A stretch of DNA of 64,000 bases from Chlorobiota bacterium (GTDB lineage: Bacteria; Bacteroidota; Bacteroidia; JAADEI01): contig JAADEI010000102.1 in assembly GCA_013153515.1 (NCBI GenBank), positions 2,721-66,720 on the forward strand, written 5' to 3'. Made by a program: the position numbers and the translations under genes. The notes under the pieces were generated by a model. The model searched no databases and was not told the DNA's origin. It saw only the letters and a program-made list of their open reading frames with translations. Of this stretch, positions 18,757 to 51,418 are shown one piece after another; position 1 is the stretch's first letter, and each line of letters opens with the position of its first letter.

Positions 18757-19629
18757 TTACGTCTTAACGCAAAGTTGTTGAAGTAACTCTTTCCAGAAGG
18801 AAGGCAAGGAGGTTGAATTGAAAGGTTTGCCTTCGTAACGGTCGGTTATAAAAATCCATTTGCCAAATAAGCCTTTTCTTATATACTTAATGAATGGCGT
18901 AAGTTCTTCCCATGATGAAACATATATAATTGAAATGCTTCTGTTCCTCAAATCCTTGTTAGGAATTATCTCTTTTGAAATGCCCATGTTTTCATAGACA
19001 ATCACAGCATCGGCTATTTCTATAAACCGCTCTGGATTTAAAGAGTTAGACAGATTTATAATAATGAAATCATAACCCAATTCACGGGCAATCTCACTTA
19101 GTTGTGCATAATAGCTAAGCATATCAGGGTTATCTAACACTTCATCAAGCAGTATCCCATTTATTTCTGGAAGAAGGTCTTGAATGTGAATCAGTTGGCG
19201 GGCAATTTCTTCCATAGGTCTTTCACCATATTTGGTAGGGATTCTGATAGCAATATGAAATTTCAAATTTCGTGCTATTTGAAGATATCGCCTTAGTTCC
19301 GATATGTCTCCTGCTTTAATGTGTTCTTCTTCCAAAACAATGATTGGCTTAGTGCATTTAGAAAGTTGAGTAAGAAGGGAGTCCCAGTTAATTTGTGTCG
19401 GTGAGCTAATTGGGAAGATTATGCTTGTGTTGTCGGGATAGAGATTGGTGGCGTCAAATTTGGAATAAGGTTCCACCTGACAGGAGTAGAGAATCGTGAT
19501 GATGATGCCCGTGATAACGAATATATTTTGGAGCAATCCCATCGGGATTAATTCAAACTTTAATAAGGTCAAACAAGTCAATATGTAGAGGAGTATTATC
19601 CACCCTAACGAAGCCTTCTGCTTTATCAA
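18757..19629 (-). CDS. hypothetical membrane-anchored protein (start probably at internal Met near 19542)
   Basis: The track ORF overlaps the upstream deacetylase gene by 77 nt. The internal MGLLQNIFVITGIIITILYS start gives a TM anchor 10 nt downstream of the deacetylase stop. No recognised domain. Confidence 0.45.
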   Translation of the reverse strand: MIKQKASLGWIILLYILTCLTLLKFELIPMGLLQNIFVITGIIITILYSCQVEPYSKFDATNLYPDNTSIIFPISSPTQINWDSLLTQLSKCTKPIIVLEEEHIKAGDISELRRYLQIARNLKFHIAIRIPTKYGERPMEEIARQLIHIQDLLPEINGILLDEVLDNPDMLSYYAQLSEIARELGYDFIIINLSNSLNPERFIEIADAVIVYENMGISKEIIPNKDLRNRSISIIYVSSWEELTPFIKYIRKGLFGKWIFITDRYEGKPFNSTSLPSFWKELLQQLCVKT

Positions 19630-20269
19630 CGCCTATGTAGAACCCCCACATAGATGCTCGGGACTCAAGAAATTCCATAAACCTTTTGGTTGATAGAATT
19701 GTCTCGGGAGCCGGATAAGCAGGGTCGAACTGTGAGCGGTAGCATTGCAACGACGACACCTTGTCAACCCACGTGTCTGTTACGTCAATTAATATCTCAG
19801 GGTGAATGTATGTGTGTTGAATGTAATGAAGAACCAAGCTTGGTCTGTGAGGGTTAGGCACCCGAGTTCCCCAAAGGTTCCTGAGTCCAGCCATAAAAAT
19901 TGCACGTTTGATTAGCCGGAACGACCGCTCGTGGTCCGGATGCCTCTCCACAGGCGAAGGTATAAGGGCTATATCTGGTTTTAAGAGCCGGATTGCATCA
20001 ACTACCTTGATTAAAGCCTCTCTGTCTTCCTCAAAGAAGATATCCTCAAGCCTTAGGTTTATTCGTTTCCTGATGCCTAATTGTTGGGCAGCACAAACTG
20101 CTTCGGCAAGCCTCTCCTCAACACTGCCCCTCGTTCCATAATCCCCAGCAGTTAAGTCAACTATGAAAACATTGTGTCCCAACTTGCTATATTTAGCCAA
20201 AGTTCCTCCACAAGCTAACTCAACATCGTCAGGGTGTGCCCCAAATGCCACGATATTAAGCGTCTTCAT
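19553..20269 (-). CDS. bshB1: PIG-L/LmbE family N-acetylglucosaminyl deacetylase, BshB1-like
   Basis: 238 aa. AFGAHPDDVELACGGTLAK with the HPDH zinc-binding motifs of LmbE/BshB. bshC is also in this window. The start overlaps the upstream DUF721 gene by 4 nt. Confidence 0.65.
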   Translation of the reverse strand: MKTLNIVAFGAHPDDVELACGGTLAKYSKLGHNVFIVDLTAGDYGTRGSVEERLAEAVCAAQQLGIRKRINLRLEDIFFEEDREALIKVVDAIRLLKPDIALIPSPVERHPDHERSFRLIKRAIFMAGLRNLWGTRVPNPHRPSLVLHYIQHTYIHPEILIDVTDTWVDKVSSLQCYRSQFDPAYPAPETILSTKRFMEFLESRASMWGFYIGVDKAEGFVRVDNTPLHIDLFDLIKV

Positions 20270-20606: not shown

Positions 20607-21302
20607 CTATTGATGAATTCCGCATTCTGTCTTTTGCAATCCACGCCATCTGCCCGCTCGCCACTCCTCCCCTTCCGCTACCGGTGTTGTGCAGGGCATA
20701 CAGCCAATGCTTGGGTAACCCTTGTCATGGAGAGGATTATAGGGTAAATTATGCTTTTTTACGTAGTCCCAGACCTGTTCCCATGTCCAATATGCCAGTG
20801 GATTCACTTTATATAAGTTGTTCTTGTTGTCCCACATAATTGTTTCGGCGGTTGCCCGAGATGGACTCTGTTCCCTTCGGATGGATGTTATCCATGCTTT
20901 TTTGCCGTCAAGAGCTTTTTTCAATGGTAGAACCTTTCGTATAAAACAACACAGGTCAGGGTTCCTATACCATAAGTTTTTGCCAAAAATTTCTTCTTGA
21001 TCTTTAAGGCTAATGCCCCGATATGTCTTTATTTTAAGTCCAAAAGTTTTTTCTATGTGTTCTTTAAGAGCATATGTCTCAGGGAATAATAGTTCAGTGT
21101 CCAGTAAAAAAATCTCTATCCCTGCATTCATTTTATATAAGTGATGTAAAATAACAATTCCTTCAATCCCCAGAGCAGTGGCAAAGGATATGGAATCTTT
21201 CCCAAACAGAGAAATAGATTCTGAGAGGATTGTTTCAGCGCTACTGGTTCGCCACCTGTCCTGTAGCTCCCTTAGTTGTTCTTCAGTTAAAATCTCCATC
21301 AT
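20607..21302 (-). CDS. cysH: assimilatory adenylyl-sulfate (APS)/PAPS reductase CysH, Fe-S type
   Basis: 231 aa with the PAPS-reductase fold and C-terminal ECGIH. The CC...CxxC cysteines (DLCCFIRK and GCMPCT) are typical of 4Fe-4S APS reductases. Confidence 0.75.
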   Translation of the reverse strand: MMEILTEEQLRELQDRWRTSSAETILSESISLFGKDSISFATALGIEGIVILHHLYKMNAGIEIFLLDTELLFPETYALKEHIEKTFGLKIKTYRGISLKDQEEIFGKNLWYRNPDLCCFIRKVLPLKKALDGKKAWITSIRREQSPSRATAETIMWDNKNNLYKVNPLAYWTWEQVWDYVKKHNLPYNPLHDKGYPSIGCMPCTTPVAEGEEWRAGRWRGLQKTECGIHQ

Positions 21303-21443
21303 TATAAAGTTTCAAAACAAATATATTAATTGCCTGAAAAAGATTTTATGAGACGCATAATCAAGATTTCCGAATCATGATATCAATTTTCTATTTTAGA
21401 GTGAGTTGTGTAAGTTAGTAATTACGTTTTTAAAAATCTATCC

Positions 21444-23210
21444 ATGAAGAGGGTTACTGAAAAAATGTTGTTGTTATTAATGGGCATTGGGGTCGTCAAT
21501 ATGGAGGCACAAAAAGTTGGTGTTGGAACCACTCAGCCTCAGGCAGCTTTGCATGTCAGTCATCAATCAGTCTTAATATATCCCGCTCTTATGAACACAA
21601 TAGACGGAGATACTGTTTTTATGGTTTCGTCAGATAAAAGAGTTGGTGTGGGGACAGGAAGTCCAACCCAGCGGTTGCACGTGAAAGGGAATGTAATGTT
21701 GGAAGGTGCTTTAATGCCATCAGGCAACGCAGGTAACTCGGGCCAAGTGTTAATATCTCAAGGAAGCAATGTCCCACCAATGTGGGTAGATCCGCTATCC
21801 ATCGGCGATAATTGGGGCAGTCAAGTGGCAGTGACTATATCCCCGGTAGTGGGTGATGGAACAACGACTAATCCAATCACACTACAGTCAGGGAATAATG
21901 TGGGAGATGTCCTTGTTTGGGATGGAACCCAATGGCTAATTCAACAACCAGGTTCCTCCTCGGGAATAGCCTCATTGTGCAATAACCCATCAATAAATAT
22001 GGTCCAGAAATGGACTGGTGCTGACCTGTGCAATTCAATAATTTATGACGATGGCACGAATGTGGGAATAGGAATAACCACACCAGGCGAAAAATTAGAT
22101 GTTGCCGGAAACATTCAATTCAGTGGTGCATTGATGCCCGGGGGGAGTGCAGGCAGTGTGGGGCAAGTTCTCGTTTCACAAGGTCCCGGTGTTGCTCCGC
22201 AATGGCGCAATGCCACATCAGTAGGTGGAGATAATTGGGGCAGTCAAGTGGCTCAAACCTCTACGCCGATAGTTGGTGATGGCACCTCCTCCAACCCTAT
22301 ATCTATCCAAAGTGGGACCGCGAATGGGGACCTGCTTATATGGAATGGTTCATCGTGGCAAATAGGACAGCCCAGCCCATCAAATGGAATAAGTCCCATA
22401 TGTTCTGCTCCAGCAACTAATATAATTCAGAAATGGACAGGTTCACGATTGTGCAATTCCAAAATTTATGATAATGGGACAAGCATTGGAATCAATACTA
22501 CAACGCCTTCACCATCTGCAATCCTGGACATCAATTCAACCAATCAGGGTGTTTTGTTTCCTCGGGTCACCCTTAATGCAGCCAATAACCCAGCTCCTGT
22601 GACCTCACCGGCAACAGGACTTATGGTATACAATACCGCTACTGCCGGGACAGGTAATAATGCCGTCTCGCCGGGATATTACTATTGGGATGGTAGCAGA
22701 TGGACGAGACTGCAGACAAATGCTTATGCAGGAGCCATATTTGGTGTACATCATGGAAATAACAGTTATGTAATGACTACTCAATGGACAGACTGGGAAT
22801 GTACAGGGGCATATATTGACCTTCCTGAAGGAAAGTGGATTGTTTATATAACGGAAATTATACGTTTTCATTCTGGTGGAAGTTCTGCTATCGCCCCGTG
22901 TGCCGTGTGGGTGAGAACAACTTTGGGTGATGGGACGTGCACACAAGGAACAGTGTCGACCGGCTCCCCAACATCATTGGATATCATTGGCTCTAAATTG
23001 GCTTCCGGAGCTATAGGAAACGATTTTCCATTTTCACTAGTCACAGGACAAATAATTATAGCAAATAAAAGCGGTGGGGTTAAAAGATATTCTCTCTGGG
23101 CTCAATATGAACCTTCGCCCACTTGCCCCAGCTTCTCCGCTTCAGATGGATTGGATCGGTTCGCCGGACCATGGGGTGAAAATCAGTTATTTGCAATTCC
23201 TGCTCAATAA
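21444..23210 (+). CDS. secreted repeat protein with tail-fibre-like VGIGTTxP...LHV/LDV repeats and a unique Cys-containing C-terminal domain
   Basis: 588 aa with a signal peptide. Two tandem 141-aa repeats (aa 67-206 and 207-347) plus partial copies. The GVLFPRVT / MVYNT / YYWDG motifs precede a roughly 170-aa unknown C-terminal domain. Confidence 0.6.
   Translation: MKRVTEKMLLLLMGIGVVNMEAQKVGVGTTQPQAALHVSHQSVLIYPALMNTIDGDTVFMVSSDKRVGVGTGSPTQRLHVKGNVMLEGALMPSGNAGNSGQVLISQGSNVPPMWVDPLSIGDNWGSQVAVTISPVVGDGTTTNPITLQSGNNVGDVLVWDGTQWLIQQPGSSSGIASLCNNPSINMVQKWTGADLCNSIIYDDGTNVGIGITTPGEKLDVAGNIQFSGALMPGGSAGSVGQVLVSQGPGVAPQWRNATSVGGDNWGSQVAQTSTPIVGDGTSSNPISIQSGTANGDLLIWNGSSWQIGQPSPSNGISPICSAPATNIIQKWTGSRLCNSKIYDNGTSIGINTTTPSPSAILDINSTNQGVLFPRVTLNAANNPAPVTSPATGLMVYNTATAGTGNNAVSPGYYYWDGSRWTRLQTNAYAGAIFGVHHGNNSYVMTTQWTDWECTGAYIDLPEGKWIVYITEIIRFHSGGSSAIAPCAVWVRTTLGDGTCTQGTVSTGSPTSLDIIGSKLASGAIGNDFPFSLVTGQIIIANKSGGVKRYSLWAQYEPSPTCPSFSASDGLDRFAGPWGENQLFAIPAQ
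21642..22484 (+). repeat. intragenic tandem duplication, 2 x about 423 bp (diverged)
   Basis: An identical 23-mer gataattggggcagtcaagtggc occurs at 21807-21829 and 22230-22252, 423 bp apart. The protein repeats are about 60 percent identical. Confidence 0.7.
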
Positions 23211-23327
23211 AAATTTGGCTTTTACATTAAAACAAATATGAGGGAACTAATTTATAATTAATTTCTGTTTTCATAGGCGCAAACCTCTATCTATAGAACT
23301 AAAAAAGTTCTATGGGTACGCTAGCGT

Positions 23328-24596
23328 TTGTGCATAAAAAATAATGCAATGAGAGCTAATGACACCTCTGAGTTGTTGCGTTACTTTGCTCAGGCAATTA
23401 AAGATGCAAAATCATTTCTATGGTTGAACTATGAAAGATTAGGCATAGAAATTATTAGGGAATTTATTCCGGAAGGACTCCCAGAGAAAAAATTAGATAA
23501 ACTTATAAGCAAGTTCCCAATGGAAATCCCTGAGCTGAGGACACTTTTTAAGACCGTTGAAAAGGTTGAATTGGAATGGAATCTAAAAGACTTTATTGAT
23601 AGGTTTTCATCAATCGGTAAAATTGATATTCCTGACCTGTCAGTGATGACTAAAAACATAAATGATAATTCGGAGTATTATTGGATATTAGATATAGAAA
23701 GCAAAACAGGGGAATTAAAATTCTATAGTGATTTGGACATTAGTAAGAAAGACCTGAAAGAATTTAAGAAAACCCTTCCCAAAATCTATTACTTTGACGT
23801 GTTTGCCGATGCAGATGCATATACTGTGCTATGGTTCAATGAAGACAAATATGGATTGGCAATAGTGACCGACCAAGGTTCAAAATTGGAAATCCTTCCG
23901 TGGTCAATAGCAGAGTATTTGACCTATCTTGTTCAGACATTGGGACTGCGATATTGGCAAGAGATTTTTCTGAAAAGGTGTGAGGAAGGCGATTTCACAT
24001 GTTTGATTAAGGAAGTTCTGAAAGATTATGATTATACTAAAGAAAACGAAGAGTCACTATTAAAGCTATTTGAAGAATATCACCAGATTGTGGGGCATGT
24101 GCCTTCTGTTTTATTGAAATCATACATTAACCTTTTTGGAAAAACAGAAAATTTAGATAAGGTAAGGGAGTTAGTGGAAAGGGAAGGGGCGGATCCTAAT
24201 GTTCGCTTTGGGGATTTCAATACCCCTCTTACAAGGGCAGCTAGGGTCAACGACTTTGCTTTGATTAATTTGCTATTAGACCTTGGTGCAAATCCTGATT
24301 TGAGAAATGCAGAGGGGCAGTCCCCTCTAGATATTTTATTGAATCGTTCCAAAATAGATGTTCCTACATTAATTCGGTTAGTAAAGGGAGGGGCGTCCTT
24401 AACTCCTGAAAATGTGTCTGAAATATTGTCCAAGAAGGTCATCACCAGAAAGAAATATGCAGAAAATCCAGATATGAAAATTCTCATTGAAAAAATGATT
24501 GAGTTAGGGGAGAATTTAGATGAACTGATAGAGGCAATAAGGAAAATCAAAGATGAGGATCTCTTGAGCAAGGCAGAAGCGAGGAAGAAAAATTAA
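23328..24596 (+). CDS. cytoplasmic ankyrin-repeat protein with unknown N-terminal domain
   Basis: 422 aa with no signal peptide. The C-terminal third has ankyrin repeats (TPLTRAARVNDFALINLLLDLGANPDLRNAEGQSPLDILL). The real start may be the Met at 23349. Confidence 0.6.
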   Translation: MCIKNNAMRANDTSELLRYFAQAIKDAKSFLWLNYERLGIEIIREFIPEGLPEKKLDKLISKFPMEIPELRTLFKTVEKVELEWNLKDFIDRFSSIGKIDIPDLSVMTKNINDNSEYYWILDIESKTGELKFYSDLDISKKDLKEFKKTLPKIYYFDVFADADAYTVLWFNEDKYGLAIVTDQGSKLEILPWSIAEYLTYLVQTLGLRYWQEIFLKRCEEGDFTCLIKEVLKDYDYTKENEESLLKLFEEYHQIVGHVPSVLLKSYINLFGKTENLDKVRELVEREGADPNVRFGDFNTPLTRAARVNDFALINLLLDLGANPDLRNAEGQSPLDILLNRSKIDVPTLIRLVKGGASLTPENVSEILSKKVITRKKYAENPDMKILIEKMIELGENLDELIEAIRKIKDEDLLSKAEARKKN

Positions 24597-24813
24597 ATAG
24601 GTAGGCATATATAAATACTGTGATTTTTGCTATTACCTTTTAAGCTGCTTTATAAAAGCATTCCTGAAAGAACTCTAAATCAAAATTATTGGTATCTTCA
24701 TTGATGATTAATTAGCTGTTGCGCATTCCTTTAATAAAGACTATGCTAGATTATTTTCTATTAGATTTTAATGCTTGATAACAAGCTATTCTATTCACAA
24801 TAAACAGCTTGCA

Positions 24814-24821
24814 TAACTTTG
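24814..24821 (+). promoter_or_regulatory. -7 promoter element TAACTTTG placed for a leaderless or near-leaderless DUF1599 transcript
   Basis: Exact TAnnTTTG ending about 6 nt before the ATG at 24827. Confidence 0.35.
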
Positions 24822-24826
24822 CTCTT

Positions 24827-25369
24827 ATGATAAGAGATGTTGAGGGTGTTTTATCTACTGCTAAGGAAATTTTTAAAGCCAAATTGCGGGACTATGGTAT
24901 GGCATGGATTATTCTGAGACCAACAACCTTACTTGACCTGTTGTTTATAAAAGCCCACAGAATTAGAACCATTGAGGAAAAGGGAAAGCAAGAAGTGCCT
25001 GATTCCATTGAAGACGATTTCATAGGTATTATTAATTACTCAATAATGACGCTCATGAAACTTGAATGTTCAGACCTATCTCTAAATTCTTCCAAGGAAA
25101 CAGTACTTGACTGTTATTCAAAAATCACTGCAAAAGTTATTGATTTACTCAATAAAAAGAATTCAGATTATGGAGATGCTTGGAAATTAATGCTTCCAAC
25201 CTCATTCACAGACATAATCCTTATGAAGATATTGCGTTTAAGAAGTGAGATAGAGAAAAAGGGGCTTACGAAAGAAATCGCAGAAGCACACTTGTTCGAC
25301 GTAATTAATTACTCAATATTTGCTATTTTAACGCACAAAAAACAGGACGGAAACAATAAGAATCCATAA
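24827..25369 (+). CDS. DUF1599-like protein (two internal repeats)
   Basis: The track start at 24809 is a TTG; the first ATG is at 24827 (MIRDVEG...). Two repeats: RPTTLLDLLFIKAHRIRTIEEKG and LPTSFTDIILMKILRLRSEIEKKG. Confidence 0.5.
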   Translation: MIRDVEGVLSTAKEIFKAKLRDYGMAWIILRPTTLLDLLFIKAHRIRTIEEKGKQEVPDSIEDDFIGIINYSIMTLMKLECSDLSLNSSKETVLDCYSKITAKVIDLLNKKNSDYGDAWKLMLPTSFTDIILMKILRLRSEIEKKGLTKEIAEAHLFDVINYSIFAILTHKKQDGNNKNP

Positions 25370-25380
25370 GATTAAGAAGC

Positions 25381-26571
25381 ATGGGCAAAGCAACAAAGAT
25401 ATTGGTTGACATAGTGAGGTTTGCCGTTGGAGTCCTATTCATCTTCTCGGGAATGATTAAGCTGGTTGACCCTCTCGGCACCGCATATAAATTAGAAGAG
25501 TATTTTGAAGTCTTTCGTCTGCCCGAATTCTTTAATAACCTGTCTCTGTTTTTGAGCATAGCTTTCTCTTCCGCCGAGGTTTCCTTAGGGGTTGCGTTGA
25601 TTGTTGGCTGGATGCCCACACTGACCACCATCGCCCTCTTGGGACTCATCATATTTTTCACCTTCCTAACAGGATATTCTGCAATAACAGGGGCTGTTAC
25701 GGATTGTGGTTGTTTCGGTGACTTCATTAAACTAACACCATGGCAATCGTTCTACAAGGACATCGTGCTCACAGTGTTAATACTATTCCTGTTCATTAAT
25801 AGAAAACATATTAGTCCGGGGGGCAAAGTGGCTACTGTCCTCACGGGGATAGCAACAGTTTTTGCCGTGTTGTTTGGCATATGGAATTATCTCACTCTGC
25901 CACTGATTGACTTCCGTCCATATAAAGCGGGGAATAATATCTGGGAGTTAATGCAGGTTCCACCGGGGGCACCTCAGGATGTTTATGAAACAATCCTTGT
26001 GTATAGGAACAAACAGACAGGCGACGTGGTTGAAATGACTTCGTCAGAGTTTGTGTCCCGCTATCAGGAATTCCAAGACACTACGGTATGGGAGTTCGTG
26101 AGTTCTGAGTCCAAACTCGTCCAAAAGGGGTACACCCCACCAATCCACGATTTTGTCCTGCTTGACTCCTCAGGAAATGATGTGACGGCAGAAGTGCTCA
26201 ATCAGTCGGGAACATACCTGTTCGTAATAGTTTATCCTTCAAGATTTTCTGAGAGGGGCTTAAAGGAAGTTGTTGAAGAATTAAAAGATTCTGAGTTGCC
26301 AGTGTTTGTCCTAACAGCTTTTCCATCTAATGAATGGGAGAACATTAAACAAGAAGTTGGAGTACCGGCTCTTTGGAAAACCCTCTATGTTGATGCCACT
26401 GCCTTGAAAACTTTCATCCGTTCCAGTCCAGGAGTTGTTCTCATGAACGGACCGGTGGTGGTGGACAAGTGGCATTGGAGGACCTTCTCAAAAGAGGACT
26501 TACGGGAAAGTCTTTCTAAAATTGAAACAATTGAGCCAGACCACAATTCAGACCTAAATACATCAGTGTAG
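25381..26571 (+). CDS. DoxX-like integral membrane protein with C-terminal soluble domain
   Basis: 396 aa. Four N-terminal TM helices of DoxX type (VRFAVGVLFIFSGMIKL) and a 200-aa C-terminal domain. Confidence 0.5.
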   Translation: MGKATKILVDIVRFAVGVLFIFSGMIKLVDPLGTAYKLEEYFEVFRLPEFFNNLSLFLSIAFSSAEVSLGVALIVGWMPTLTTIALLGLIIFFTFLTGYSAITGAVTDCGCFGDFIKLTPWQSFYKDIVLTVLILFLFINRKHISPGGKVATVLTGIATVFAVLFGIWNYLTLPLIDFRPYKAGNNIWELMQVPPGAPQDVYETILVYRNKQTGDVVEMTSSEFVSRYQEFQDTTVWEFVSSESKLVQKGYTPPIHDFVLLDSSGNDVTAEVLNQSGTYLFVIVYPSRFSERGLKEVVEELKDSELPVFVLTAFPSNEWENIKQEVGVPALWKTLYVDATALKTFIRSSPGVVLMNGPVVVDKWHWRTFSKEDLRESLSKIETIEPDHNSDLNTSV

Positions 26572-26573
26572 CA

Positions 26574-27626
26574 ATGGTGAGATACATTATAAAAAGGCTT
26601 TTATATGGAATTCTTGTTTGGCTTGGGGTCGTGGTCGTCATATTTATTCTTTTCCAGATATTGCCTGGAGACCCTTCACGATTGATTGTTGGACAGAGAG
26701 CAGATGCCGAAACAATAGAGCGAATCAAGAGGGAGCTCGGCTTAGACCAACCAGTATATATCCAATTCATGAGATATTTAAATGATGTTTCACCTGTTTC
26801 GGTTCACAAAAAAGATAAAATTAAAAAATATGATGTCTTGTTGAAACTTTATGAAGGGGAAGAGACCTTGGCAGTAATCAAACTGCCCTATTTAGGAAGG
26901 TCCTATCACACAAGACGGGATGTCTGGAGCATTATCTGGGACGCTTTCCCAAACACTGCCGCCCTCGCTTTCTCTGCTCTACTTCTTGCCATAGTGTTCG
27001 GAATCTTTTTCGGGGCAATAGCGGCAATCAGGCATGGCTCGTGGATAGATGCATTCATCTCTTCTCTGTCCACTCTGGGAATTTCAACGCCCTCATTCTT
27101 TGCAGGACTCATTATCGCTTGGCTCTTCGGCTTCCTCCTCGCTGAATACACTGGTTTGCCTATGGCTGGCTCCCTCTTTGAAATAGACCCATACAAAGGA
27201 AAGGTTCTTAGGCTTGAAAACCTAATCCTCCCTGCCTTCACCTTGGGAATCCGTCCAATGGCAATGATTACTCAGATGACCAGATCAGCAATGCTAGACA
27301 TTATGCAAGAACAATTCGTTATTACAGGTTATGCCAAGGGACTGCCTGCGTGGAAAGTTACAATCTTTTATGTTCTAAGAAATGCTCTAAATCCGGTTGT
27401 TACAATTACAAGCAGTTGGTTGGCATACCTGCTCACAGGAGCCTTCTTTATTGAATATATATTCTCTTGGAAAGGCATTGGATTGCTAGCTGTCAAAGCT
27501 CTTCAAAATATGGACTTTCCAGTGGTGATGGGGGTCGCCCTATTCTCCGCTTCCCTATTCGTTATTATCAACATACTGACAGACATTGCTTATGGATTGC
27601 TTGACCCTCGGGTCTCACTTAAATAA
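26574..27626 (+). CDS. ABC transporter permease, DppB/OppB (binding-protein-dependent) family
   Basis: 350 aa with six TM segments and the EAA-like loop region. No ATPase or second permease nearby. Confidence 0.75.
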   Translation: MVRYIIKRLLYGILVWLGVVVVIFILFQILPGDPSRLIVGQRADAETIERIKRELGLDQPVYIQFMRYLNDVSPVSVHKKDKIKKYDVLLKLYEGEETLAVIKLPYLGRSYHTRRDVWSIIWDAFPNTAALAFSALLLAIVFGIFFGAIAAIRHGSWIDAFISSLSTLGISTPSFFAGLIIAWLFGFLLAEYTGLPMAGSLFEIDPYKGKVLRLENLILPAFTLGIRPMAMITQMTRSAMLDIMQEQFVITGYAKGLPAWKVTIFYVLRNALNPVVTITSSWLAYLLTGAFFIEYIFSWKGIGLLAVKALQNMDFPVVMGVALFSASLFVIINILTDIAYGLLDPRVSLK

Positions 27627-27655
27627 TTGAGGATTATAACTAAACACAGGATGAG

Positions 27656-28393
27656 ATGATGGAGAAAGGACAATACATCTACGGAGTCAGACCCATTGAG
27701 GAAGCCGTCAGGGCAGGCAAACCCATAGAAAAGGTTTGGGTTCAAGCAGGGAAGCGACTTCCTTCCGCAGTCAATCAATTGCGTAAACAAGGAGTCCCAG
27801 TGCAATATGTCCCACCAAGATGGTTTAGAAAATGGAATAGGGTGAATCATCAAGGGATTGTGGCTTTAATAGCACCGCTTAAATATCAACCATTGGAGGA
27901 TGTGCTGGATATGATGCTTGAACAAGGCAACTCAATAGGGATTGTCTTAGATGGGGTTAGCGACGTTAGAAACGTGGGGTCCATAGCCAGAAGTACATAT
28001 GCTTTAGGGGGCGCCGCTTTGTTCCTACCACAGAAGGAAGGGGCATTGCTCTCAGAAGAAGCGGTTAAGGCATCCGCAGGAGCACTACTTCATTTGCCTG
28101 TGTCCAGATACCCCTCGCCCCAAAAACTTATCCAATTGTCCGAAGAGAGAGGAATTAACATTGCGATTACTACCGTGGACACTATGTCCGAACCTATTTA
28201 CAGGGTTCGCTTTGAAGGACCATGGTTGGTAGTGATGGGAGATGAACATCGGGGAGTCAGACCCGCTTTCCTTAACAAGGTGGAGCGAAAAATTACTATT
28301 CCAATGAAGAATCTGGATTCTTTAAACGTTGCCAATGCCACAAGCGTTATTCTATATGAATGGTTAAGGCAACAACTACAAGAAGACAAATGA
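27656..28393 (+). CDS. rlmB: TrmH/SpoU-family RNA 2'-O-methyltransferase (RlmB-like)
   Basis: 245 aa. SpoU substrate-binding N-domain and SPOUT motifs (IVLDGVSDVRNVGSIARS, GDEHRGV). Stop TGA. Confidence 0.75.
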   Translation: MMEKGQYIYGVRPIEEAVRAGKPIEKVWVQAGKRLPSAVNQLRKQGVPVQYVPPRWFRKWNRVNHQGIVALIAPLKYQPLEDVLDMMLEQGNSIGIVLDGVSDVRNVGSIARSTYALGGAALFLPQKEGALLSEEAVKASAGALLHLPVSRYPSPQKLIQLSEERGINIAITTVDTMSEPIYRVRFEGPWLVVMGDEHRGVRPAFLNKVERKITIPMKNLDSLNVANATSVILYEWLRQQLQEDK

Positions 28394-28429
28394 GAACAAA
28401 TAGAGAAATCAAAATGCCTTAATTTTGCA

Positions 28430-29422
28430 GTGAAAAATAGTTGTGGAAAAGTGGCGAATTATAAACTGAATAGAGAAACACTAAGATTCGAAGAGGAAGA
28501 TAGCATTCTTAAAAAAATAGCACTTTATGGCACCCTTTCCTTCCTTCTGTTCACCGCAGGGTTCGGCGTTGGATACTACATTTTCACCCATTCCGGATGG
28601 TTTGAATCATCAAGAGAAAAGCAACTAAGGGGGCAATTGGAAAGGATCATTGCTAAATATGAAGAATTAAGCAAAGAGGTGGAGTATCTTAATGCCCAAA
28701 TGTCTGACCTCGCCTTTAAAGATGATAGCATCTATAGGGTGATTTTTGGTGTTTCGCCAGTGGATGCTACACTTAGGGAAGGTGCTTACGGTGGTGTTGA
28801 ATATGCTCGGGACGTCCTTGATATGCCCAACAATGAAATGATCGCTTCTATTGAGCAGAAGGTGAGCCATTTGAAAAGGCAGGTTGCCGTCCAACAAAAG
28901 TCCTTTGACGAATTGCTACGACAGGCTCAGAAATGGCGGGAATACTGGGAGCACGTGCCCGCTATCCAACCCGTCGATAATAAACACCTTAGGAGGTTGG
29001 CTTCCGGATTCGGCTATAGGATAGATCCAATTTATAAAGTGAGGAAATTTCACGAAGGACTAGACTTCTCCGCACCAATCGGAACACCTGTATATGCTAC
29101 GGGAGATGGTGTAGTGGAAAAAGTTAAACGTTCCAGAAGGGGATATGGCAACCACATAATTATTAACCATGGCTTCGGATACAAAACTTTATATGCCCAT
29201 ATGAGTAAAATACTTGTCAAACCGGGAGAGAAAGTTAAGCGTGGACAGATAATCGGATATGTTGGAAACACAGGGAAGTCAACAGCACCACACCTTCACT
29301 ATGAAGTGTGGAAAAACGACAAGAAAGTTAATCCTATTAACTACTTTTTTAATGATTTGACCATCGAACAATACAGTGAAATTGTCAGGAGAGCAAATAG
29401 CAGTAAGTATTCCCTTGATTAA
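28430..29422 (+). CDS. M23 family metallopeptidase (membrane-anchored, coiled-coil linker)
   Basis: 330 aa. TM segment, coiled coil and a C-terminal LytM domain (GLDFSAPIGTPVYATGDGVV...GNHIIINHGFGYKTLYAHM...HLHYEV). The track start is GTG. Confidence 0.85.
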   Translation: MKNSCGKVANYKLNRETLRFEEEDSILKKIALYGTLSFLLFTAGFGVGYYIFTHSGWFESSREKQLRGQLERIIAKYEELSKEVEYLNAQMSDLAFKDDSIYRVIFGVSPVDATLREGAYGGVEYARDVLDMPNNEMIASIEQKVSHLKRQVAVQQKSFDELLRQAQKWREYWEHVPAIQPVDNKHLRRLASGFGYRIDPIYKVRKFHEGLDFSAPIGTPVYATGDGVVEKVKRSRRGYGNHIIINHGFGYKTLYAHMSKILVKPGEKVKRGQIIGYVGNTGKSTAPHLHYEVWKNDKKVNPINYFFNDLTIEQYSEIVRRANSSKYSLD

Positions 29423-29436
29423 TAGCTAAGAATTTT

Positions 29437-30975
29437 ATGAGACCGCAGGTGTTAGTTGTTGATTTCGGCTCTCAATACACCCAGTTAATAGTCAGACGAG
29501 TCAGGGAAAATAATGTATATGCAGAACTTGTGTTACCAGAAAATATAAATCATTACCTTGAAAACGATAATTTGAAAGGGATAATTCTTTCAGGAAGCCC
29601 GTTCTCTGTGTATGATAAAGATGCACCGATTGTTAACACTAAGCAACTTGCTGAACAATTCCCTGTTTTGGGAATATGCTATGGTGCACAGCTAATAGCC
29701 TTTCAGTGGGGAGGGGTTGTTGGGAGGGGAGACACCAGAGAGTTCGGTCCAAGCATTATTAAGCAATTTGAGAAACAAGACCCATTTATTCATGGGATTC
29801 CTTTGCCATGGAAAGTTTGGATGTCTCATAGCGACGCCATAAAAAAACTTCCTGAAGGCTTTGAAGCTCTTGCCTACACCGAAAACGATATCCTCGCTAT
29901 ATTCAAACACAAGGATAAGGCTATATATGGAGTTCAATTTCATCCGGAAGTTGTTCACACTGAACACGGCTCCCATCTGCTCGCTCGGTTCCTTTTTGAC
30001 GTGTGTGGATGCGAACCAACATGGACACCTGCCGAATTCGTACAGGAACAAGAGGAGATAATAAGGAATCTGGTTGGTCCCGATGAACATGTTGTTATGG
30101 CGGTGTCCGGAGGAGTGGATTCATCAGTGGCTGCAACTATAATCCACCGGGCAGTGGGGCACAGATTCCATGGATTCTTTGTAGACACAGGCTTGATGAG
30201 GAAAGGCGAACCCACTGAAATAATTGAAGCATATAAACACATCGGACTTCCTGTTGAATTAATTGATGCGAGCAATGAGTTCCTCTCTGCATTACAGGAC
30301 GTTACAGACCCAGAGCAGAAACGCCGAATTATAGGACACAAATTTATTGAAGTCTTTGAACGGGAGGCAAGAAAGATAAAAGGGGCTAAGTGGTTAGGAC
30401 AGGGAACCATTTATCCTGATGTTATTGAATCAGCTGCTTCCGAAAGCAAGGCAGATAAAATAAAGTCTCACCATAATGTTGGGGGTTTACCAGAGAAGAT
30501 GAACCTCAGGCTTATTGAACCTTTGCGATTCCTGTTTAAGGACGAAGTGAGGAAAGTGGGTGAATATCTTGGACTTCCAGACACCATTTTGAAAAGGCAT
30601 CCATTCCCCGGTCCCGGACTGGCAATTAGAATAATCGGGGAAATAACTCCAGAGAAAGTTAAACTTCTTCAAGAGGCAGATGCCATATTCATTCAAATGC
30701 TCAGGGAACATGGGCTTTATGATTACGTATGGCAGGCAGGAGTCATATTATTACCAGTTAAGACAGTGGGCGTAATGGGAGATTCCAGAACATATCAATA
30801 TGCTGTTGCTCTGCGGGCTGTACTTTCAACAGATGGGATGACTGCCGACTGGGCTCGCCTACCTCACGAATTCCTTGCTCACGTCTCAAACCGCATAATA
30901 AATGAAATAGAAGGCATTAACAGAGTCGTTTATGATATAACTTCTAAACCACCGGGAACAATAGAATGGGAATGA
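29437..30975 (+). CDS. guaA: GMP synthase (glutamine-hydrolysing)
   Basis: 512 aa. GATase (GICYGAQL) plus the ATP-PPase SGGVDSSV motif and the C-terminal dimerisation domain. Confidence 0.95.
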   Translation: MRPQVLVVDFGSQYTQLIVRRVRENNVYAELVLPENINHYLENDNLKGIILSGSPFSVYDKDAPIVNTKQLAEQFPVLGICYGAQLIAFQWGGVVGRGDTREFGPSIIKQFEKQDPFIHGIPLPWKVWMSHSDAIKKLPEGFEALAYTENDILAIFKHKDKAIYGVQFHPEVVHTEHGSHLLARFLFDVCGCEPTWTPAEFVQEQEEIIRNLVGPDEHVVMAVSGGVDSSVAATIIHRAVGHRFHGFFVDTGLMRKGEPTEIIEAYKHIGLPVELIDASNEFLSALQDVTDPEQKRRIIGHKFIEVFEREARKIKGAKWLGQGTIYPDVIESAASESKADKIKSHHNVGGLPEKMNLRLIEPLRFLFKDEVRKVGEYLGLPDTILKRHPFPGPGLAIRIIGEITPEKVKLLQEADAIFIQMLREHGLYDYVWQAGVILLPVKTVGVMGDSRTYQYAVALRAVLSTDGMTADWARLPHEFLAHVSNRIINEIEGINRVVYDITSKPPGTIEWE

Positions 30976-43899: not shown

Positions 43900-45399
43900 A
43901 TGTGGGAAATAGTTGATCTGGAAGATTATGATGCCTTTAATATAAGGCAGGAATTACAAGAGTTTTTGAGGGACGAAGGGTTAAGGCAATTGGACAGATG
44001 CACTTTGGGGGTTAGGGAAGCAGTGGTGAAATCAATTTATGCTAAGAATTTAACCGATAAACAGAAAGAAAACCTTGAACTGGTCAAGTCAGGAAATGCT
44101 TATGTAGTTACAGTTAGCCATCAACCGCATTTGTTAGGCGGTCCTGTTTTCGTGCTGTATAAGGCTTTGCAGGCGATAGCGTTGGCTGAGACGATAAGTG
44201 AAGAGACTGGTGAGCCAACAGTGCCCATATTCTGGGTGCACTCGGACGACCACGACTGGCAGGAATTAACAACAATAACAATTAAGAACAAAGAGTTTTC
44301 AGGGTTTAAGGAGAGAAGTGACCCATTTGGGTTTGCTGATGTGGACGATGAAGTGCGGGAATACATTCGGCAGGTTGTTAGCCACTTTCCCAATGCTAAA
44401 TTTATGGCTGATTTTTACCGACAAGGTCTTAGGTTGGCTGATGCCTTCGTTGATTTGATGAATTTTTTCCTTGGTGATACAGGAATTCTGTTCCTTGATT
44501 CCGGCTCGTCTGATGTGTGTAAGGAACTGATTCCATTCATAAAGGCTGATTTAATTGAAGATAGAATATATCCCATTGTTGCTAAGACTAATGAAGATTG
44601 GAGGTCAAAAGGCTGGAAACCAATCATAAACCCAATGAGAACAAACACTTTCTATATAGACAACTCAGGGAGAAGGGCTAAGGTCATCAGGAAAAGCGAT
44701 GATTCTTTTATTGTTGGGGATGCGGTTATGAACAAAGACGAACTTCTGGCGGAAATAGAGACCCATCCAGAAAAATTTAGTCCCGGAGTGGCTGTCCGAA
44801 TCCTCTGGCAAGAGCATCTTCTTAATTCGTGTGCGTTCACTGGCGGTTCAACAGAGATACTCTACTGGTATCAATTGATTCCGTTGTTTAGGGAGATGGG
44901 AATTAAGGTTCCGGCATTGTTTTTGAGACATAGCCTCTTTGTTGTTAGTGAAAAGATTTTTCCTGTGGTTGAGAGGCTTGGCGGATTCAAGGAGTTCGTT
45001 GTTTCGTGGGAGGAGTTGCAAGCCAAAGCAATTAAATCAGTCCTTCCAGAGTGGTTTCCTGAAGGGGAGTTGGTAAATAAATGTCGGGAACTGGAAAATC
45101 TTGTGGATTCCGTCAAGCGTGCTGATGTGCGGTCTTTCCTTGCAGGCAGACTGAGGAAACTGGCAAAACAGTGGAATAAAGAGGTTCGGAAGGCAAGAAA
45201 AATGTTGATTGGTCCTGAATTGGAGAGGATTAAGAGGGTTCATGAACAGTTAATGCCCTTGGGAAAGTGGCAGGAAAGAACGATTTCACTCTTGGAATTC
45301 GTTGATAGATACGGGACAGAGGGGGTTAGAGCCTTAATAACGGCTTATCCCAGAAATAAAGAATCCAAAGTAGCGTTTATAAAAAGAAAAGGAGAATGA
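43900..45399 (+). CDS. bshC: bacillithiol biosynthesis cysteine-adding enzyme BshC
   Basis: 499 aa. VSHQPHLLGGPVFVLYK...EPTVPIFWVHSDDHDWQEL aligns with B. subtilis BshC GGQQAGLLTGPLYTIHK...VPVIPIFWVAGEDHDLDEI. The later FSPGVAVRILWQEHLL...GGSTEILYW segment also matches. Confidence 0.85.
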   Translation: MWEIVDLEDYDAFNIRQELQEFLRDEGLRQLDRCTLGVREAVVKSIYAKNLTDKQKENLELVKSGNAYVVTVSHQPHLLGGPVFVLYKALQAIALAETISEETGEPTVPIFWVHSDDHDWQELTTITIKNKEFSGFKERSDPFGFADVDDEVREYIRQVVSHFPNAKFMADFYRQGLRLADAFVDLMNFFLGDTGILFLDSGSSDVCKELIPFIKADLIEDRIYPIVAKTNEDWRSKGWKPIINPMRTNTFYIDNSGRRAKVIRKSDDSFIVGDAVMNKDELLAEIETHPEKFSPGVAVRILWQEHLLNSCAFTGGSTEILYWYQLIPLFREMGIKVPALFLRHSLFVVSEKIFPVVERLGGFKEFVVSWEELQAKAIKSVLPEWFPEGELVNKCRELENLVDSVKRADVRSFLAGRLRKLAKQWNKEVRKARKMLIGPELERIKRVHEQLMPLGKWQERTISLLEFVDRYGTEGVRALITAYPRNKESKVAFIKRKGE

Positions 45400-47527: not shown

Positions 47528-47611
47528 TCGTTTTTGTGTATTTTTGCTAATGAATAAATCAAGTTGTTTATCTTTGCAAAAAGAGTAACTAAACGTGGAA
47601 AAGGAAGTAAG

Positions 47612-50600
47612 ATGAAGAGGGGAGCACTAAAGATGTTAGGTCTGTTTGCACTGATGGTTCTAACCTATGTCTCTGCCTTTGCTCAAACAGGTGCAATTAA
47701 AGGGCGGGTGCTTGATGACCGAGGGGAGGGAGCCGTTGGCGCAGTTATTCAAGTAAAAAGAAATGGAGTATTAGTGAAAGGGTCTAGTATCTATGATCTT
47801 GGTGGATGGTTTATGATCAGAAATCTTGATCCTGGTGTGTATGATTTGGAGGTTACTTTGGCGGGTATGGCACCATATAAACTCACGGGAATTCAAGTTC
47901 CACCGGAAAAAGTTGTTGATGTTGGAACTATTAGGTTAACACCAAAGGCAAAAACACTTAAAGAAGCAATAGTGGTTGTTTATTCAAAACCCTTATTTAA
48001 AAAGGACCAAACAACTAGTCAGTTTACACTTAGCAAAGAAGAAATTGAAAAGTTATCTCCTCGTAATCCTGCAGACCTAGCGGCAACCAGTGCAAATGTT
48101 TTTCAGCGTGATGAGGGGTCCGAACTTAATGTTAAGGGGAGCCGAACGACCGGTAACGTGATGATTATTGACGGTATGAAGATATTTGGTAGTAATATTA
48201 ATTTACCCAAAGGAGCTATAGAACAAATCTCTACCATAACAGGCGGTGTGCCGGCTAAATACGGCGATGCAACAGGTGGAATTATTACTGTTACAACAAA
48301 AGGTCCGAGTGCAAACCCCGGATTTGGCTTTGAGGCTGTCACCTCTCAATTCCTTGATCCATATGGATACAACCTAGTCGGCGCTAGCTTTACTACTCCC
48401 TTGTTATGGGAGGAAGGCGTTAATGAAAAGGGAGAAAAAGTTAAGAAACGCCCAATTTTAGGAATGTTCTTTTCCGGAGAGTATAATTATCAAAAGGACT
48501 ACAGACCCTCATTCTATATATTTAAAATGAAGGATAGCGTATTTCAGGATGTTGTTAATGAACCTCTTATTAAGACTGAACAAGGTGCATTTATTAAAAA
48601 GGTGGAGACGCTTAGGAGGGATGCCTTTGAACCTATTAAATATCGCTTAAATGCGTATAGAAATAGGGTGTCTTTAAGCACTAAATTTGATTTTTCTCCT
48701 AAGGAGAATCTTAACATAACCTTAGGTGGTTTCTATATCAACGAATGGGGAAGGGCTTATGTTCATAGGTATTCTCTAATGAATTGGGAAAGACAACCTT
48801 GGACAAAAAATAGACAGTTTAATACTATGTTGCGATTGAGGCAAGAATTCCCTACAAAAGACACCGCAGCCATCATCAGAGACTTCTCTTATTCTATCCA
48901 ATTTGAGTACAGAAATCAGTTTTCAACAACAGCTGATTTCTATCATAGATATGAGCCATTTAATTATGGATATATAGGCAAATTTATGCAACGGGAAGTC
49001 CCCTTCTATTTCCTCTCAACAGATTCAGCCCTGTCAGCACTTGCCGGAAGACCTATCATAATTAATAATGTGTACTTGGGCTCTATCTATTTGATTGACA
49101 CATTCATTCCAGGAGGTTTGAATCCATATCTTGAAAACATTACCAAACAATATCTTGAAAATGCCGTTGGAGACCAATCAATAGGTTCTGTTATTAACGG
49201 ACCTGCTATCGCCAACGGCGAACGAACCCTCGCAGATTACACTTCTTATAGCATCTGGTTCATCCCGGGTCGTCAATATGGAGGGTATTCATTTAACACT
49301 AATTCACGATTCCGAGTTTGGTTTAATGGTGCATTTAGTATAATCCCGAAAAAAAAGAAGGGTCAAGGCAAAGAGAATCATCATAATATAGAGTTTGGAA
49401 TGGAATATGAGCAAGAGACCAGAAGGGGCTATTCAATTGGTGCTGTAAGCCTTTGGACATTGGCTCGCCTATATGTCAACAGGCATTTAGCGGAACTCAA
49501 CCTCTCTGATCCAATTCTTATCATTGATGGTCAACAATATCGCTTCAGTGAAATTAAAGATAAATTAATTGCAGGGGAAATCACGTTCGACCCCGAAAGC
49601 GATACTGTTTATTATGAGCCTCTTTATAGGGCTTCTGAACAAGCTTGGATTGATAAAAAACTCCGTGAAAAACTTGGGTTGCCAGTAGACGGAACAGACA
49701 ATATACCCGTGGATACACTATCACCGGATGTCTTCTCCCTGGATATGTTCGCACCCGATGAGTTGTGGTTGGAAGGAATCAACTCCCTAGTTTCATATTA
49801 TGGATATAACTACATCGGAAACATTGATAAAAACAAGGTTACATTTAAAGACTTCTGGACAGCAAAAGATGAAAATGGGAATTATCTCCGTCCAATCGCA
49901 CCATATAGACCGATCTACATGGCATTTTATGTTCAAGATAAATTCATGTATAGGGACTTGATATTCAATGTTGGTCTCCGGGTTGATAGGTTTGATGCTA
50001 ACCAGAAGGTTCTTAAAGATAAATACTTATTGCTTCCTGCTTATACCACCGGGGAGGTCGATCCTGCCCTGAATCCAAATGGTAAGCACCCTGATAACAT
50101 AAGTGATGACTACGTTGTTTATGTTGACAATGCTAAGGAACCGACTACTATATTAGGTTACAGAAAGGGTGATGAATGGTATGATGCCCAAGGACGCCTT
50201 ATTGAAGACCCCGGCGTTATAGCTGCTCAAACAGTTACTGGAACAATACAACCATATCTCAAAAATCCTGATATTACAGAAAAAGATCCAGAATATGATC
50301 CTGATCAAGTGTTTACCGATTACACCCCACAATGGACAATTATGCCCAGAATAGCATTCTCTTTCCCAATCTCTGATAAGGCAAACTTTTATGCTCACTA
50401 TGATGTTTTGACACAAAGACCAAGACAGGGAATACTTGCCACCCCAGATGAATTCTATTTCCTTAGAGATATAGCAGTAAACAATATAATTTCTAATCCA
50501 GCATTGAAACCAGAGAAAGTTATTGATTATGAAGTTGGCTTTAGGCAAAAAGTATCTGATAATGTTGCTATATCTATATCAGGCTTTTATAGAGAATTAA

Positions 50601-51418
50601 GAGACATGATTCAGGTTACTAGAGTTAATTATGCTTATCCAGTTACTTATAGAACCTTTGATAATTTAGATTTTGGAACAGTGAAGGGCATGACATTCAA
50701 GTTTGATATGCGTAGAATTCCGAATAAGTTACCTCTTCAGCTAGCAGTTAATTATACTCTTCAATTTGCACAGGGAACAGGTTCCAATGTGACCAGTCAA
50801 CTCGGTCTGATTAACTTTGGCGAACCAAACCTTAGGGTTATTATTCCTCTTGACTATGACCAACGACACACCATTGTTGTTATTGCAGATTACCGATATG
50901 GTGAGAAGCAAGGACCAACCTTTAAAGGAAAGCATATCTTTGAAAATGCCGGTGTCAACTTGTTGATCAATGCCGGTTCTGGAACACCGTTTACAGTAGA
51001 TGCTTTCCCGACCAGGTCAGCCGTCCAGATTGGTGTCAATGAACGCACATCTATTAAAGGTGGTGTTAACACAGCGAGGAAACCGTGGACATTGAGGATG
51101 GATCTGAAAATTGATAAAACATTTAAAGTTAAGGTGGGAACGAGGGAAATTGATGGGAAAACTGTTGACCTCAAACTTCCAATCAATGTTTACCTCTGGG
51201 TTCAGAACTTGCTCAATAACAGAAATGTCCTTGCAGTATGGAGGGCAACGGGTTCGCCTATAGATGATGGCTATCTCTCTTCCCCTGTCGGACAACAATA
51301 CGTCTCTCAACAGGTTGATCCCCAAGCTTTCGCAGATCAATACAGGCTTTACACAATGAATCCGTTTAACTTTGGGCAACCACGAAGAATAAGAATTGGC
51401 GTAATGTTAGGGTTTTAA
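47612..51418 (+). CDS. TonB-dependent-receptor-like outer membrane protein with N-terminal CarboxypepD_reg domain
   Basis: About 1270 aa from MKRGALKML. Signal peptide, CarboxypepD_reg (IKGRVLDD...), a plug-like segment (SPRNPADLAATSANVF...MIIDGMKI), a long barrel, and a C-terminal ...IGVMLGF ending in Phe. Confidence 0.7.
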   Translation: MKRGALKMLGLFALMVLTYVSAFAQTGAIKGRVLDDRGEGAVGAVIQVKRNGVLVKGSSIYDLGGWFMIRNLDPGVYDLEVTLAGMAPYKLTGIQVPPEKVVDVGTIRLTPKAKTLKEAIVVVYSKPLFKKDQTTSQFTLSKEEIEKLSPRNPADLAATSANVFQRDEGSELNVKGSRTTGNVMIIDGMKIFGSNINLPKGAIEQISTITGGVPAKYGDATGGIITVTTKGPSANPGFGFEAVTSQFLDPYGYNLVGASFTTPLLWEEGVNEKGEKVKKRPILGMFFSGEYNYQKDYRPSFYIFKMKDSVFQDVVNEPLIKTEQGAFIKKVETLRRDAFEPIKYRLNAYRNRVSLSTKFDFSPKENLNITLGGFYINEWGRAYVHRYSLMNWERQPWTKNRQFNTMLRLRQEFPTKDTAAIIRDFSYSIQFEYRNQFSTTADFYHRYEPFNYGYIGKFMQREVPFYFLSTDSALSALAGRPIIINNVYLGSIYLIDTFIPGGLNPYLENITKQYLENAVGDQSIGSVINGPAIANGERTLADYTSYSIWFIPGRQYGGYSFNTNSRFRVWFNGAFSIIPKKKKGQGKENHHNIEFGMEYEQETRRGYSIGAVSLWTLARLYVNRHLAELNLSDPILIIDGQQYRFSEIKDKLIAGEITFDPESDTVYYEPLYRASEQAWIDKKLREKLGLPVDGTDNIPVDTLSPDVFSLDMFAPDELWLEGINSLVSYYGYNYIGNIDKNKVTFKDFWTAKDENGNYLRPIAPYRPIYMAFYVQDKFMYRDLIFNVGLRVDRFDANQKVLKDKYLLLPAYTTGEVDPALNPNGKHPDNISDDYVVYVDNAKEPTTILGYRKGDEWYDAQGRLIEDPGVIAAQTVTGTIQPYLKNPDITEKDPEYDPDQVFTDYTPQWTIMPRIAFSFPISDKANFYAHYDVLTQRPRQGILATPDEFYFLRDIAVNNIISNPALKPEKVIDYEVGFRQKVSDNVAISISGFYRELRDMIQVTRVNYAYPVTYRTFDNLDFGTVKGMTFKFDMRRIPNKLPLQLAVNYTLQFAQGTGSNVTSQLGLINFGEPNLRVIIPLDYDQRHTIVVIADYRYGEKQGPTFKGKHIFENAGVNLLINAGSGTPFTVDAFPTRSAVQIGVNERTSIKGGVNTARKPWTLRMDLKIDKTFKVKVGTREIDGKTVDLKLPINVYLWVQNLLNNRNVLAVWRATGSPIDDGYLSSPVGQQYVSQQVDPQAFADQYRLYTMNPFNFGQPRRIRIGVMLGF

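Follow-up and report, generated by a model that had tools for sequence, protein, structure and literature searches.

A probable exported adhesin fibre with a predicted TNF/C1q-like head lies beside an unrelated ankyrin gene in a Bacteroidota-type metagenome-assembled genome

Organisation of the locus

The window analysed here is a stretch of 64,000 nucleotides from contig JAADEI010000102.1 of the metagenome-assembled genome (MAG) GCA_013153515.1. It carries two neighbouring genes on the + strand, one coding for a secreted, tail-fibre-like repeat protein (protein 1) and the other for a protein with ankyrin repeats (protein 2). Both open reading frames (ORFs) had been described in a reading of the DNA made without database searches (hereafter the sequence-only reading), and their coordinates were confirmed. 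The fibre gene (GXO48_06800, NPA34615.1) was located at 21444..23210 (+) and encodes a protein of 588 aa identical to the database protein P0001. The second ORF was listed at 23328-24596 (+) and codes for 422 aa from a TTG start; this ORF is present as described, whereas the corresponding database protein (GXO48_06805, NPA34616.1, P0121) starts at the ATG in position 23349 and is 415 aa long (23349..24596, +). The adjacency of the two genes on the same strand was upheld, and the spacer, earlier put at 117 nt, amounts to 138 nt with the database ATG start of protein 2.

Leader, stalk and neck of the fibre protein

The leader of protein 1 consists of MKRVTEK, a hydrophobic core (maximum Kyte-Doolittle value of 2.83, residues 8-18) and NMEA followed by QK. 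The signal peptide claimed in the sequence-only reading was supported by this computed hydrophobic N-terminal segment and was assigned to aa 1-22 (21444..21509, +), the cleavage site being a predicted one. Judged from the sequence, signal peptidase I probably cleaves between MEA and Q, giving an N-terminal Gln. A Gln placed right after the leader corresponds to the Q-rule, which in Bacteroidetes applies to the substrates of signal peptidase I (PMC5837995). A signal peptide followed by Q-x-VG[IV]GT was found in 90 of 120 homologues, and the presence of the Q-rule leader across the family supports the export of protein 1. Nothing useful came out of the Pfam, NCBIfam and PADLOC scans of protein 1. 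No lipobox was detected, and Pfam and NCBIfam gave no match to a C-terminal sorting domain of the type IX secretion system (T9SS; Por_Secre_tail type), the C-terminus being occupied by the jelly-roll head described below.

The leader is followed by an N-terminal partial repeat (aa 23-64; 21510..21635, +), which starts with QKVGVGTTQPQAALHV and aligns to the start of the full repeat with z=7.1. Two stalk repeats of 141 aa come next, repeat 1 at aa 65-205 (21636..22058, +) and repeat 2 at aa 206-346 (22059..22481, +). The comparison of residues 66-204 with residues 206-346 revealed a true tandem repeat of about 55% identity, with a local score of 439 against 43 +/- 8 for shuffled sequences (z=51), and weaker partial copies were detected at residues 23-50 (z=7) and 346-420 (z of about 4), in agreement with the earlier description of two diverged 141-aa repeats accompanied by partial copies. 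Each full repeat contains one pair of cysteines 17 residues apart (Cys179/Cys196 in repeat 1 and Cys320/Cys337 in repeat 2), and a disulphide loop in each stalk repeat is likely.

The motif VG[VI]GT..P...L[HD]V, which had been noticed at the start of the repeats, proved to be real and family-wide, as it was found close to the N-terminus in 98 of 120 homologues and matched the phage families phrog_28668 (E=2.8e-10) and phrog_5906. Residues 132-237 matched the beta-helix of the Bdellovibrio Bd2439 stalk (PDB 8OL4; E=9e-5) in a local sequence match. These stalk and PHROG matches, along with paralogues bearing a Peptidase_S74 domain, bear out the earlier characterisation of protein 1 as a tail-fibre-like secreted repeat protein.

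Between the stalk and the head, the block GVLFPRVT...MVYNT...YYWDG forms a neck (aa 347-428; 22482..22727, +), modelled with a predicted local distance difference test score (pLDDT) of 85-91 over aa 370-420. Precomputed PF26696 (PTL_trimer) annotations were available for P0001 and for its orthologue P0002. The Pfam copy used for scanning did not include the PF26696 model, and the PTL_trimer boundaries were deduced from shared regions: the GVLFPRVT...YYWDG block was the sole part common to protein 1 and those PF26696-bearing proteins that covered 14% of the query. Because it is the only region common to many PF26696-annotated proteins, this block is most probably, as far as sequence comparison goes, the region matched by PTL_trimer. 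At least 583 stretches of the PTL block were found across Bacteroidota genomes. In four homologues (P0016, P0046, P0071 and P0100), 2-4 tandem blocks of PTL_trimer type, 60-66% identical to residues 340-426, were present in place of the single neck and head.

The C-terminal head

The remaining part of protein 1 (aa 429-588; 22728..23207, +) was predicted with a pLDDT >90 and could be superposed on jelly-rolls of the TNF/C1q family. In the fold comparison, the highest values were obtained for the C-terminal TNF-like domain of Chlamydia Pgp3 (4JDN; 10.0) and the tail fibre of cyanophage A4 (9K09; 9.6), followed by the receptor-binding domain of the cyanophage A-1(L) short tail fibre (8KE9) and the Photorhabdus TNF-like lectin (9IB6), both with 8.8, the 4-1BB ligand (8.6-8.0), BclA (7.5-7.7), C1q (7.5) and PRD1 P5 (7.4). 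The tip Bd2734 (8OKW) and the fibre Bd2439 (8OL4) of the Bdellovibrio mosaic adhesive trimer (MAT) group both gave 6.2. A Foldseek search against viral models matched C1q-domain proteins, tail fibres and collagen-like proteins. Neither Pfam and NCBIfam nor the fold comparison linked the head to a nuclease, deaminase, peptidase or pore-former. On the basis of these TNF/C1q and tail-fibre fold matches, the modelled head is assigned to the TNF/C1q-type jelly-rolls, which are the usual trimeric knobs by which fibres bind, and is predicted to be neither an enzyme nor a pore-former.

The C-terminal domain had been regarded as unique and without a recognisable family, which does not hold: among the 120 best homologues, about 40 contain the module of residues 340-588, at 33-62% identity, and many of these are short proteins (325-350 aa) consisting of the leader and the module. 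The structure prediction, pointing to a lectin-type or structural TNF/C1q head, likewise speaks against the toxin that had been suspected in this domain. The four cysteines of the head (453, 486, 499 and 561) were shared by the six closest sequences only and were replaced elsewhere by Y, G, T/S or a gap, and they may form lineage-specific stabilising disulphides.

A mosaic family of fibre proteins

At least 11 paralogues of protein 1 were identified in the same assembly, eight of them with GXO48 locus tags and three with accessions inside the same block, the origin of these three from the same assembly being deduced from the accession block. All of them open with a leader and then Q-x-VG[IV]GT, and they contain 1-3 copies of the 141-aa repeat, after which the tips diverge. 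P0003 carries the same PTL block and TNF-like head as protein 1, P0027 ends with a C-type lectin, P0113 with LamG and P0030 with the tail-fibre Peptidase_S74 chaperone; further paralogues have unannotated tips. Taken together, the paralogues make up a repertoire of mosaic adhesins whose design is that of the Bdellovibrio MAT fibres and of phage receptor-binding proteins. In 79 GTDB genomes fetched by module, the PTL block was found in 79/79, the TNF-like head in 14/79 and the stalk repeat in 2/79, and this uneven spread indicates module shuffling.

The orthologue P0002 is 74% identical to protein 1 overall, with identity highest in the neck (90%) and the head (84%) and lower in repeat 1 (76%), repeat 2 (60%) and the N-terminus (53%). 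The neck and head are thus the best conserved parts between the orthologues, which is the reverse of the pattern of polymorphic toxins, and the C-terminal module is not the variable element that the sequence-only reading had supposed.

The literature searched contains no description of a MAT-like mosaic fibre repertoire in Bacteroidota and, it appears, no study of any member of this Bacteroidota fibre family; the supplements of the MAT paper contain no Bacteroidota entries either. A 600-aa gene lacking a Pfam domain was observed directly upstream of the fibre homologue P0004 in locus L005 (3134-4936, +); tblastn of protein 1 against this gene gave no match, which shows that it is not another fibre copy.

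The MAG is labelled 'Chlorobi bacterium', yet a BT_3928-family protein and the Q-rule signal peptides (PMC5837995) point to Bacteroidota, and the relatives detected were confined to genomes of Bacteroidia, Flavobacteriales and Chitinophagales. The Gln exposed after the leader in the homologues mentioned above suggests the same placement, in Bacteroidota and not in Chlorobi in the strict sense.

Comparison with characterised fibres

The MAT fibres of Bdellovibrio bacteriovorus, such as Bd2439 and Bd2734 (PMC10769870; PDB 8OL4, 8OKW), number 21, have reported tips of the S74, TNF-like and C-type lectin types and carry a conserved domain, rich in beta structure, of about 130 aa right after the signal peptide (PMC10769870). 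They resemble the family described here in being fibre proteins with a signal peptide, in the beta-helix that the protein 1 repeat matches in Bd2439, and in forming a multi-paralogue repertoire with swapped tips of these same types. Several features set protein 1 apart. It has 588 aa, whereas MAT fibres have about 1000; its stalk is built of a 141-aa Cys-containing repeat undescribed for MATs; a probable PTL_trimer neck precedes the head; and the leader is followed by a 42-aa partial repeat, at the position that the N-terminal domain of about 130 aa takes in MAT fibres. Moreover, the head is structurally nearer to Pgp3 and the cyanophage fibres than to the MAT tips, and the host, a thermophile MAG of Bacteroidota type, shows no sign of predation.

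The short tail-fibre modules of cyanophages A4 and A-1(L) (9K09, 8KE9) share about 10% sequence identity with protein 1. They have no signal peptide and are encoded in virion gene clusters, whereas protein 1 is chromosomal, predicted to be exported by Sec and unmatched in phage genomes. Chlamydia Pgp3 (4JDN), BclA (1WCK/3TWI) and the Photorhabdus lectin (9IB6, PMC12914763) show 6-12% identity to the head of protein 1, and the stalks of the first two differ from that of protein 1, being a coiled coil in Pgp3 and collagen in BclA. Protein 1 and its orthologue share the precomputed annotation with other PF26696 proteins, most of which lack both the 141-aa stalk repeat (present in 2/79 loci) and the TNF-like head (14/79).

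The ankyrin protein

Protein 2 has no hydrophobic segment, and its C-terminal region (24138..24593, +) consists of about four tandem 33-residue ankyrin repeats matching the Ank hidden Markov models (HMMs), which confirmed the earlier description of a protein without a signal peptide and with a C-terminal ankyrin array. The N-domain (aa 1-263; 23349..24137, +) is uncharacterised. It gave no Pfam match at E<=10 and no PDB profile match better than E=0.29, and its AlphaFold2 model, built from three sequences, was of low confidence. An exhaustive HMMER search revealed two relatives among 1.8 billion representatives, and a profile search defined a family of nine members, nearly all with the architecture N-domain plus Ank and with no Pfam domain outside the Ank region. 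A possible likeness of the N-domain to SUKH/SMI1-KNR4 was considered from an impression of the motif pattern, to which Pfam (E<=10) and PDB profiles added nothing significant. PADLOC gave a weak PDC-M72A match arising from the Ank region alone, which is uninformative.

Two relatives of the ankyrin protein are encoded tail-to-tail with reverse gyrase (zf_Rg, DEAD, Toprim and Topoisom_bac domains; L088 6001-10687 and L090 4078-8388). The reverse gyrase neighbours suggest a thermophile origin of these two relatives, so that at least two members of this rare N-domain family appear to come from thermophiles.

Linkage between the fibre and ankyrin genes

The fibre and ankyrin genes have housekeeping genes on both sides, cysH upstream and, downstream, genes for DUF1599, a BT_3928-family protein and a permease. 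The orthologous locus L001 contains a cysH remnant, the fibre gene and genes for DUF1599, MauE/BT_3928, permease, SpoU, M23 and GuaA; no ankyrin gene is present there. The blastn alignment connected window positions 21169-23208 with L001 6-2041 and positions 24794-29999 with L001 2061-7248. It follows from these junctions that the syntenic relative has about 19 bp in place of the 1585 bp at 23209-24793, the 1.58-kb segment with the ankyrin gene.

The indel contains no terminal repeats, only short repeats at chance level, and no tRNA, integrase or insertion sequence ends. Its GC content is low (0.346-0.364), while the GC content at third codon positions is ordinary, which makes the compositional evidence for its transfer weak. 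A stable AT-rich hairpin was found in the intergenic region (23277..23333, +; inverted repeat I8), where the RNA fold of 23205-23345 gave z=-4.0; it has no U-tract and may be a terminator or a part of the insert boundary. The scan for promoter and terminator consensus sequences remained at chance level.

The sequence-only reading had treated the two genes as a pair. Their adjacency was found in this genome only, the ankyrin gene being absent at L001, at the paralogue locus L004 and at the relative locus L005, and tblastn with protein 2 as the query gave no matches in 79 further fibre loci (+/-4 kb). The converse search was also negative: the eight relatives of the ankyrin protein were found beside a hydrolase and an FAD oxidase, an amidase, Omp85 and AAA_14, or reverse gyrase, and none of them near a fibre gene. 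Because the ankyrin gene sits in a lineage-specific 1.58-kb indel, it is an insertion unrelated to the fibre, and the adjacency of the two genes is coincidental.

Other genes of the window

The remaining genes of the window include those for NusA, IF-2, DnaK, AcrB and BshC. A gene for a PIG-L (BshB-like) deacetylase and a Spherulin4-like ORF (18757-19629, - and 19553-20269, -) overlap by 77 nt, and the BshC gene (43900-45399, +) lies 24 kb from the PIG-L gene, so that genes of the bacillithiol pathway are present in the window. An ORF of 1339 aa (51432-55451, +) with zero Pfam matches was found directly downstream of a 1284-aa TonB-dependent-receptor-like ORF with CarboxypepD_reg and Plug domains (47564-51418, +), and it could encode an unusual SusD-position partner or a surface protein.

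Function of the fibre protein and alternative explanations

The interpretation favoured here, with a probability of roughly 0.75, is that protein 1 is a Sec-exported, probably trimeric, tail-fibre-like adhesin fibre whose TNF/C1q-like head binds a ligand, and that the ankyrin gene is unrelated to it. The protein would be exported by Sec, with its N-terminal Gln probably cyclised, and three copies would assemble into a fibre with the two beta-rich 141-aa repeats as its stalk and the PTL block as its neck. The stalk would keep the head at a distance from the cell envelope, and the head, as a trimer, would bind a ligand on a surface, most plausibly a glycan, through pockets located between the protomers, in the manner of Bd2439, the Photorhabdus lectin and phage receptor-binding proteins. 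The expected outcome would be adhesion or recognition, not toxicity. Of these elements, the arrangement of domains, the head fold, the mosaicism among paralogues and the pattern of conservation are shown by the analysis, and trimer formation, display on the surface and the ligand are inferred.

Several points weigh against this interpretation. The head shares just 6-12% identity with characterised TNF-like lectins, and ligand-binding residues were not identified in it. The structure was predicted for the monomer only, so the trimeric state is deduced, and the likeness to the MAT stalk consists of the one local match. The Pfam and NCBIfam scans found neither an outer-membrane anchor nor a T9SS C-terminal domain in protein 1, which would allow its retention in the periplasm. 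Finally, one close orthologous locus only was available for polarising the indel.

The lack of a detected T9SS domain, lipobox or outer-membrane anchor would also suit a structural protein of the periplasm or envelope, for instance a scaffold associated with the cell wall, in place of a surface adhesin. This is considered unlikely, since a repertoire of variable tips with lectin-type heads is typical of outward-facing recognition proteins, and the homologous MAT fibres, which likewise have a signal peptide only, are displayed on the surface.

Protein 1 could instead be a true tail fibre of a phage, prophage or tailocin, that is a structural component of a virion, and the PHROG matches of the N-terminal motif, the fold matches to cyanophage receptor-binding domains and viral C1q/tail-fibre proteins and the Peptidase_S74 domain on paralogues are all in line with such an origin. 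Virion fibres, however, assemble in the cytoplasm, whereas the Sec signal peptide with its Q-rule cleavage site is kept across the family. The housekeeping flanks (cysH, DUF1599, BT_3928 family and permease) are syntenic in the relative, the paralogues are dispersed singly among housekeeping genes, and in 50,697 phage genomes tblastn found nothing that matches protein 1, all of which makes a virion component very unlikely.

The position of the two genes, adjacent and on the same strand, together with an insert devoid of recognisable mobile-element scars, would fit a functional coupling other than toxicity, for instance one in which, within this lineage, the fibre is regulated or chaperoned from the cytoplasm by the ankyrin protein. 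Such a coupling is highly improbable, given that co-occurrence was nil in both directions at all loci examined, that other members of the ankyrin family lie beside unrelated genes (reverse gyrase, hydrolase, amidase) and that the two proteins belong to different compartments.

The polymorphic-toxin/immunity or adhesin/effector pair proposed in the sequence-only reading, in which the repeats would deliver a variable C-terminal toxin neutralised by the downstream cytoplasmic ankyrin protein, is scarcely credible: although the genes share one strand with a spacer of 138 nt between them, the ankyrin gene is of the accessory kind and located in a low-GC indel, and ankyrin-repeat immunity proteins exist in some systems, the head is a predicted TNF/C1q-like jelly-roll with zero enzyme or toxin matches, belongs to the best conserved parts between orthologues and recurs in about 40 proteins, no pre-toxin, RHS, LXG, PT-TG, haemagglutinin-repeat or similar domains were found in Pfam or NCBIfam, a stable hairpin separates the two genes, and the ankyrin gene is not syntenic with the fibre, being missing at the orthologous locus and 81 other fibre loci, with members of its family never adjoining a fibre gene.

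A wider proposal may be put forward, although it is a doubtful one. This thermophilic MAG and many PTL_trimer-bearing Bacteroidota might use a MAT-like repertoire, here numbering at least 11 mosaic fibres whose lectin-type tips can be exchanged, evolutionarily connected to the prey-recognition fibres of Bdellovibrio and to phage receptor-binding proteins. Were this true, it would mean a previously unrecognised contact-dependent cell recognition (predatory, epibiotic or kin/aggregate) outside Bdellovibrio-like organisms. As a separate matter, the ankyrin N-domain might represent a new and very rare family of nine members. The more modest value of the finding is that the mosaic-fibre design, in which a shared stalk is combined with exchangeable TNF-like, C-type lectin, LamG or S74 tips, extends beyond Bdellovibrio, the only organism in which it has been characterised experimentally; in this Bacteroidota-type MAG it takes the form of a large family of paralogues, and PF26696, its neck module, is widespread across Bacteroidota.

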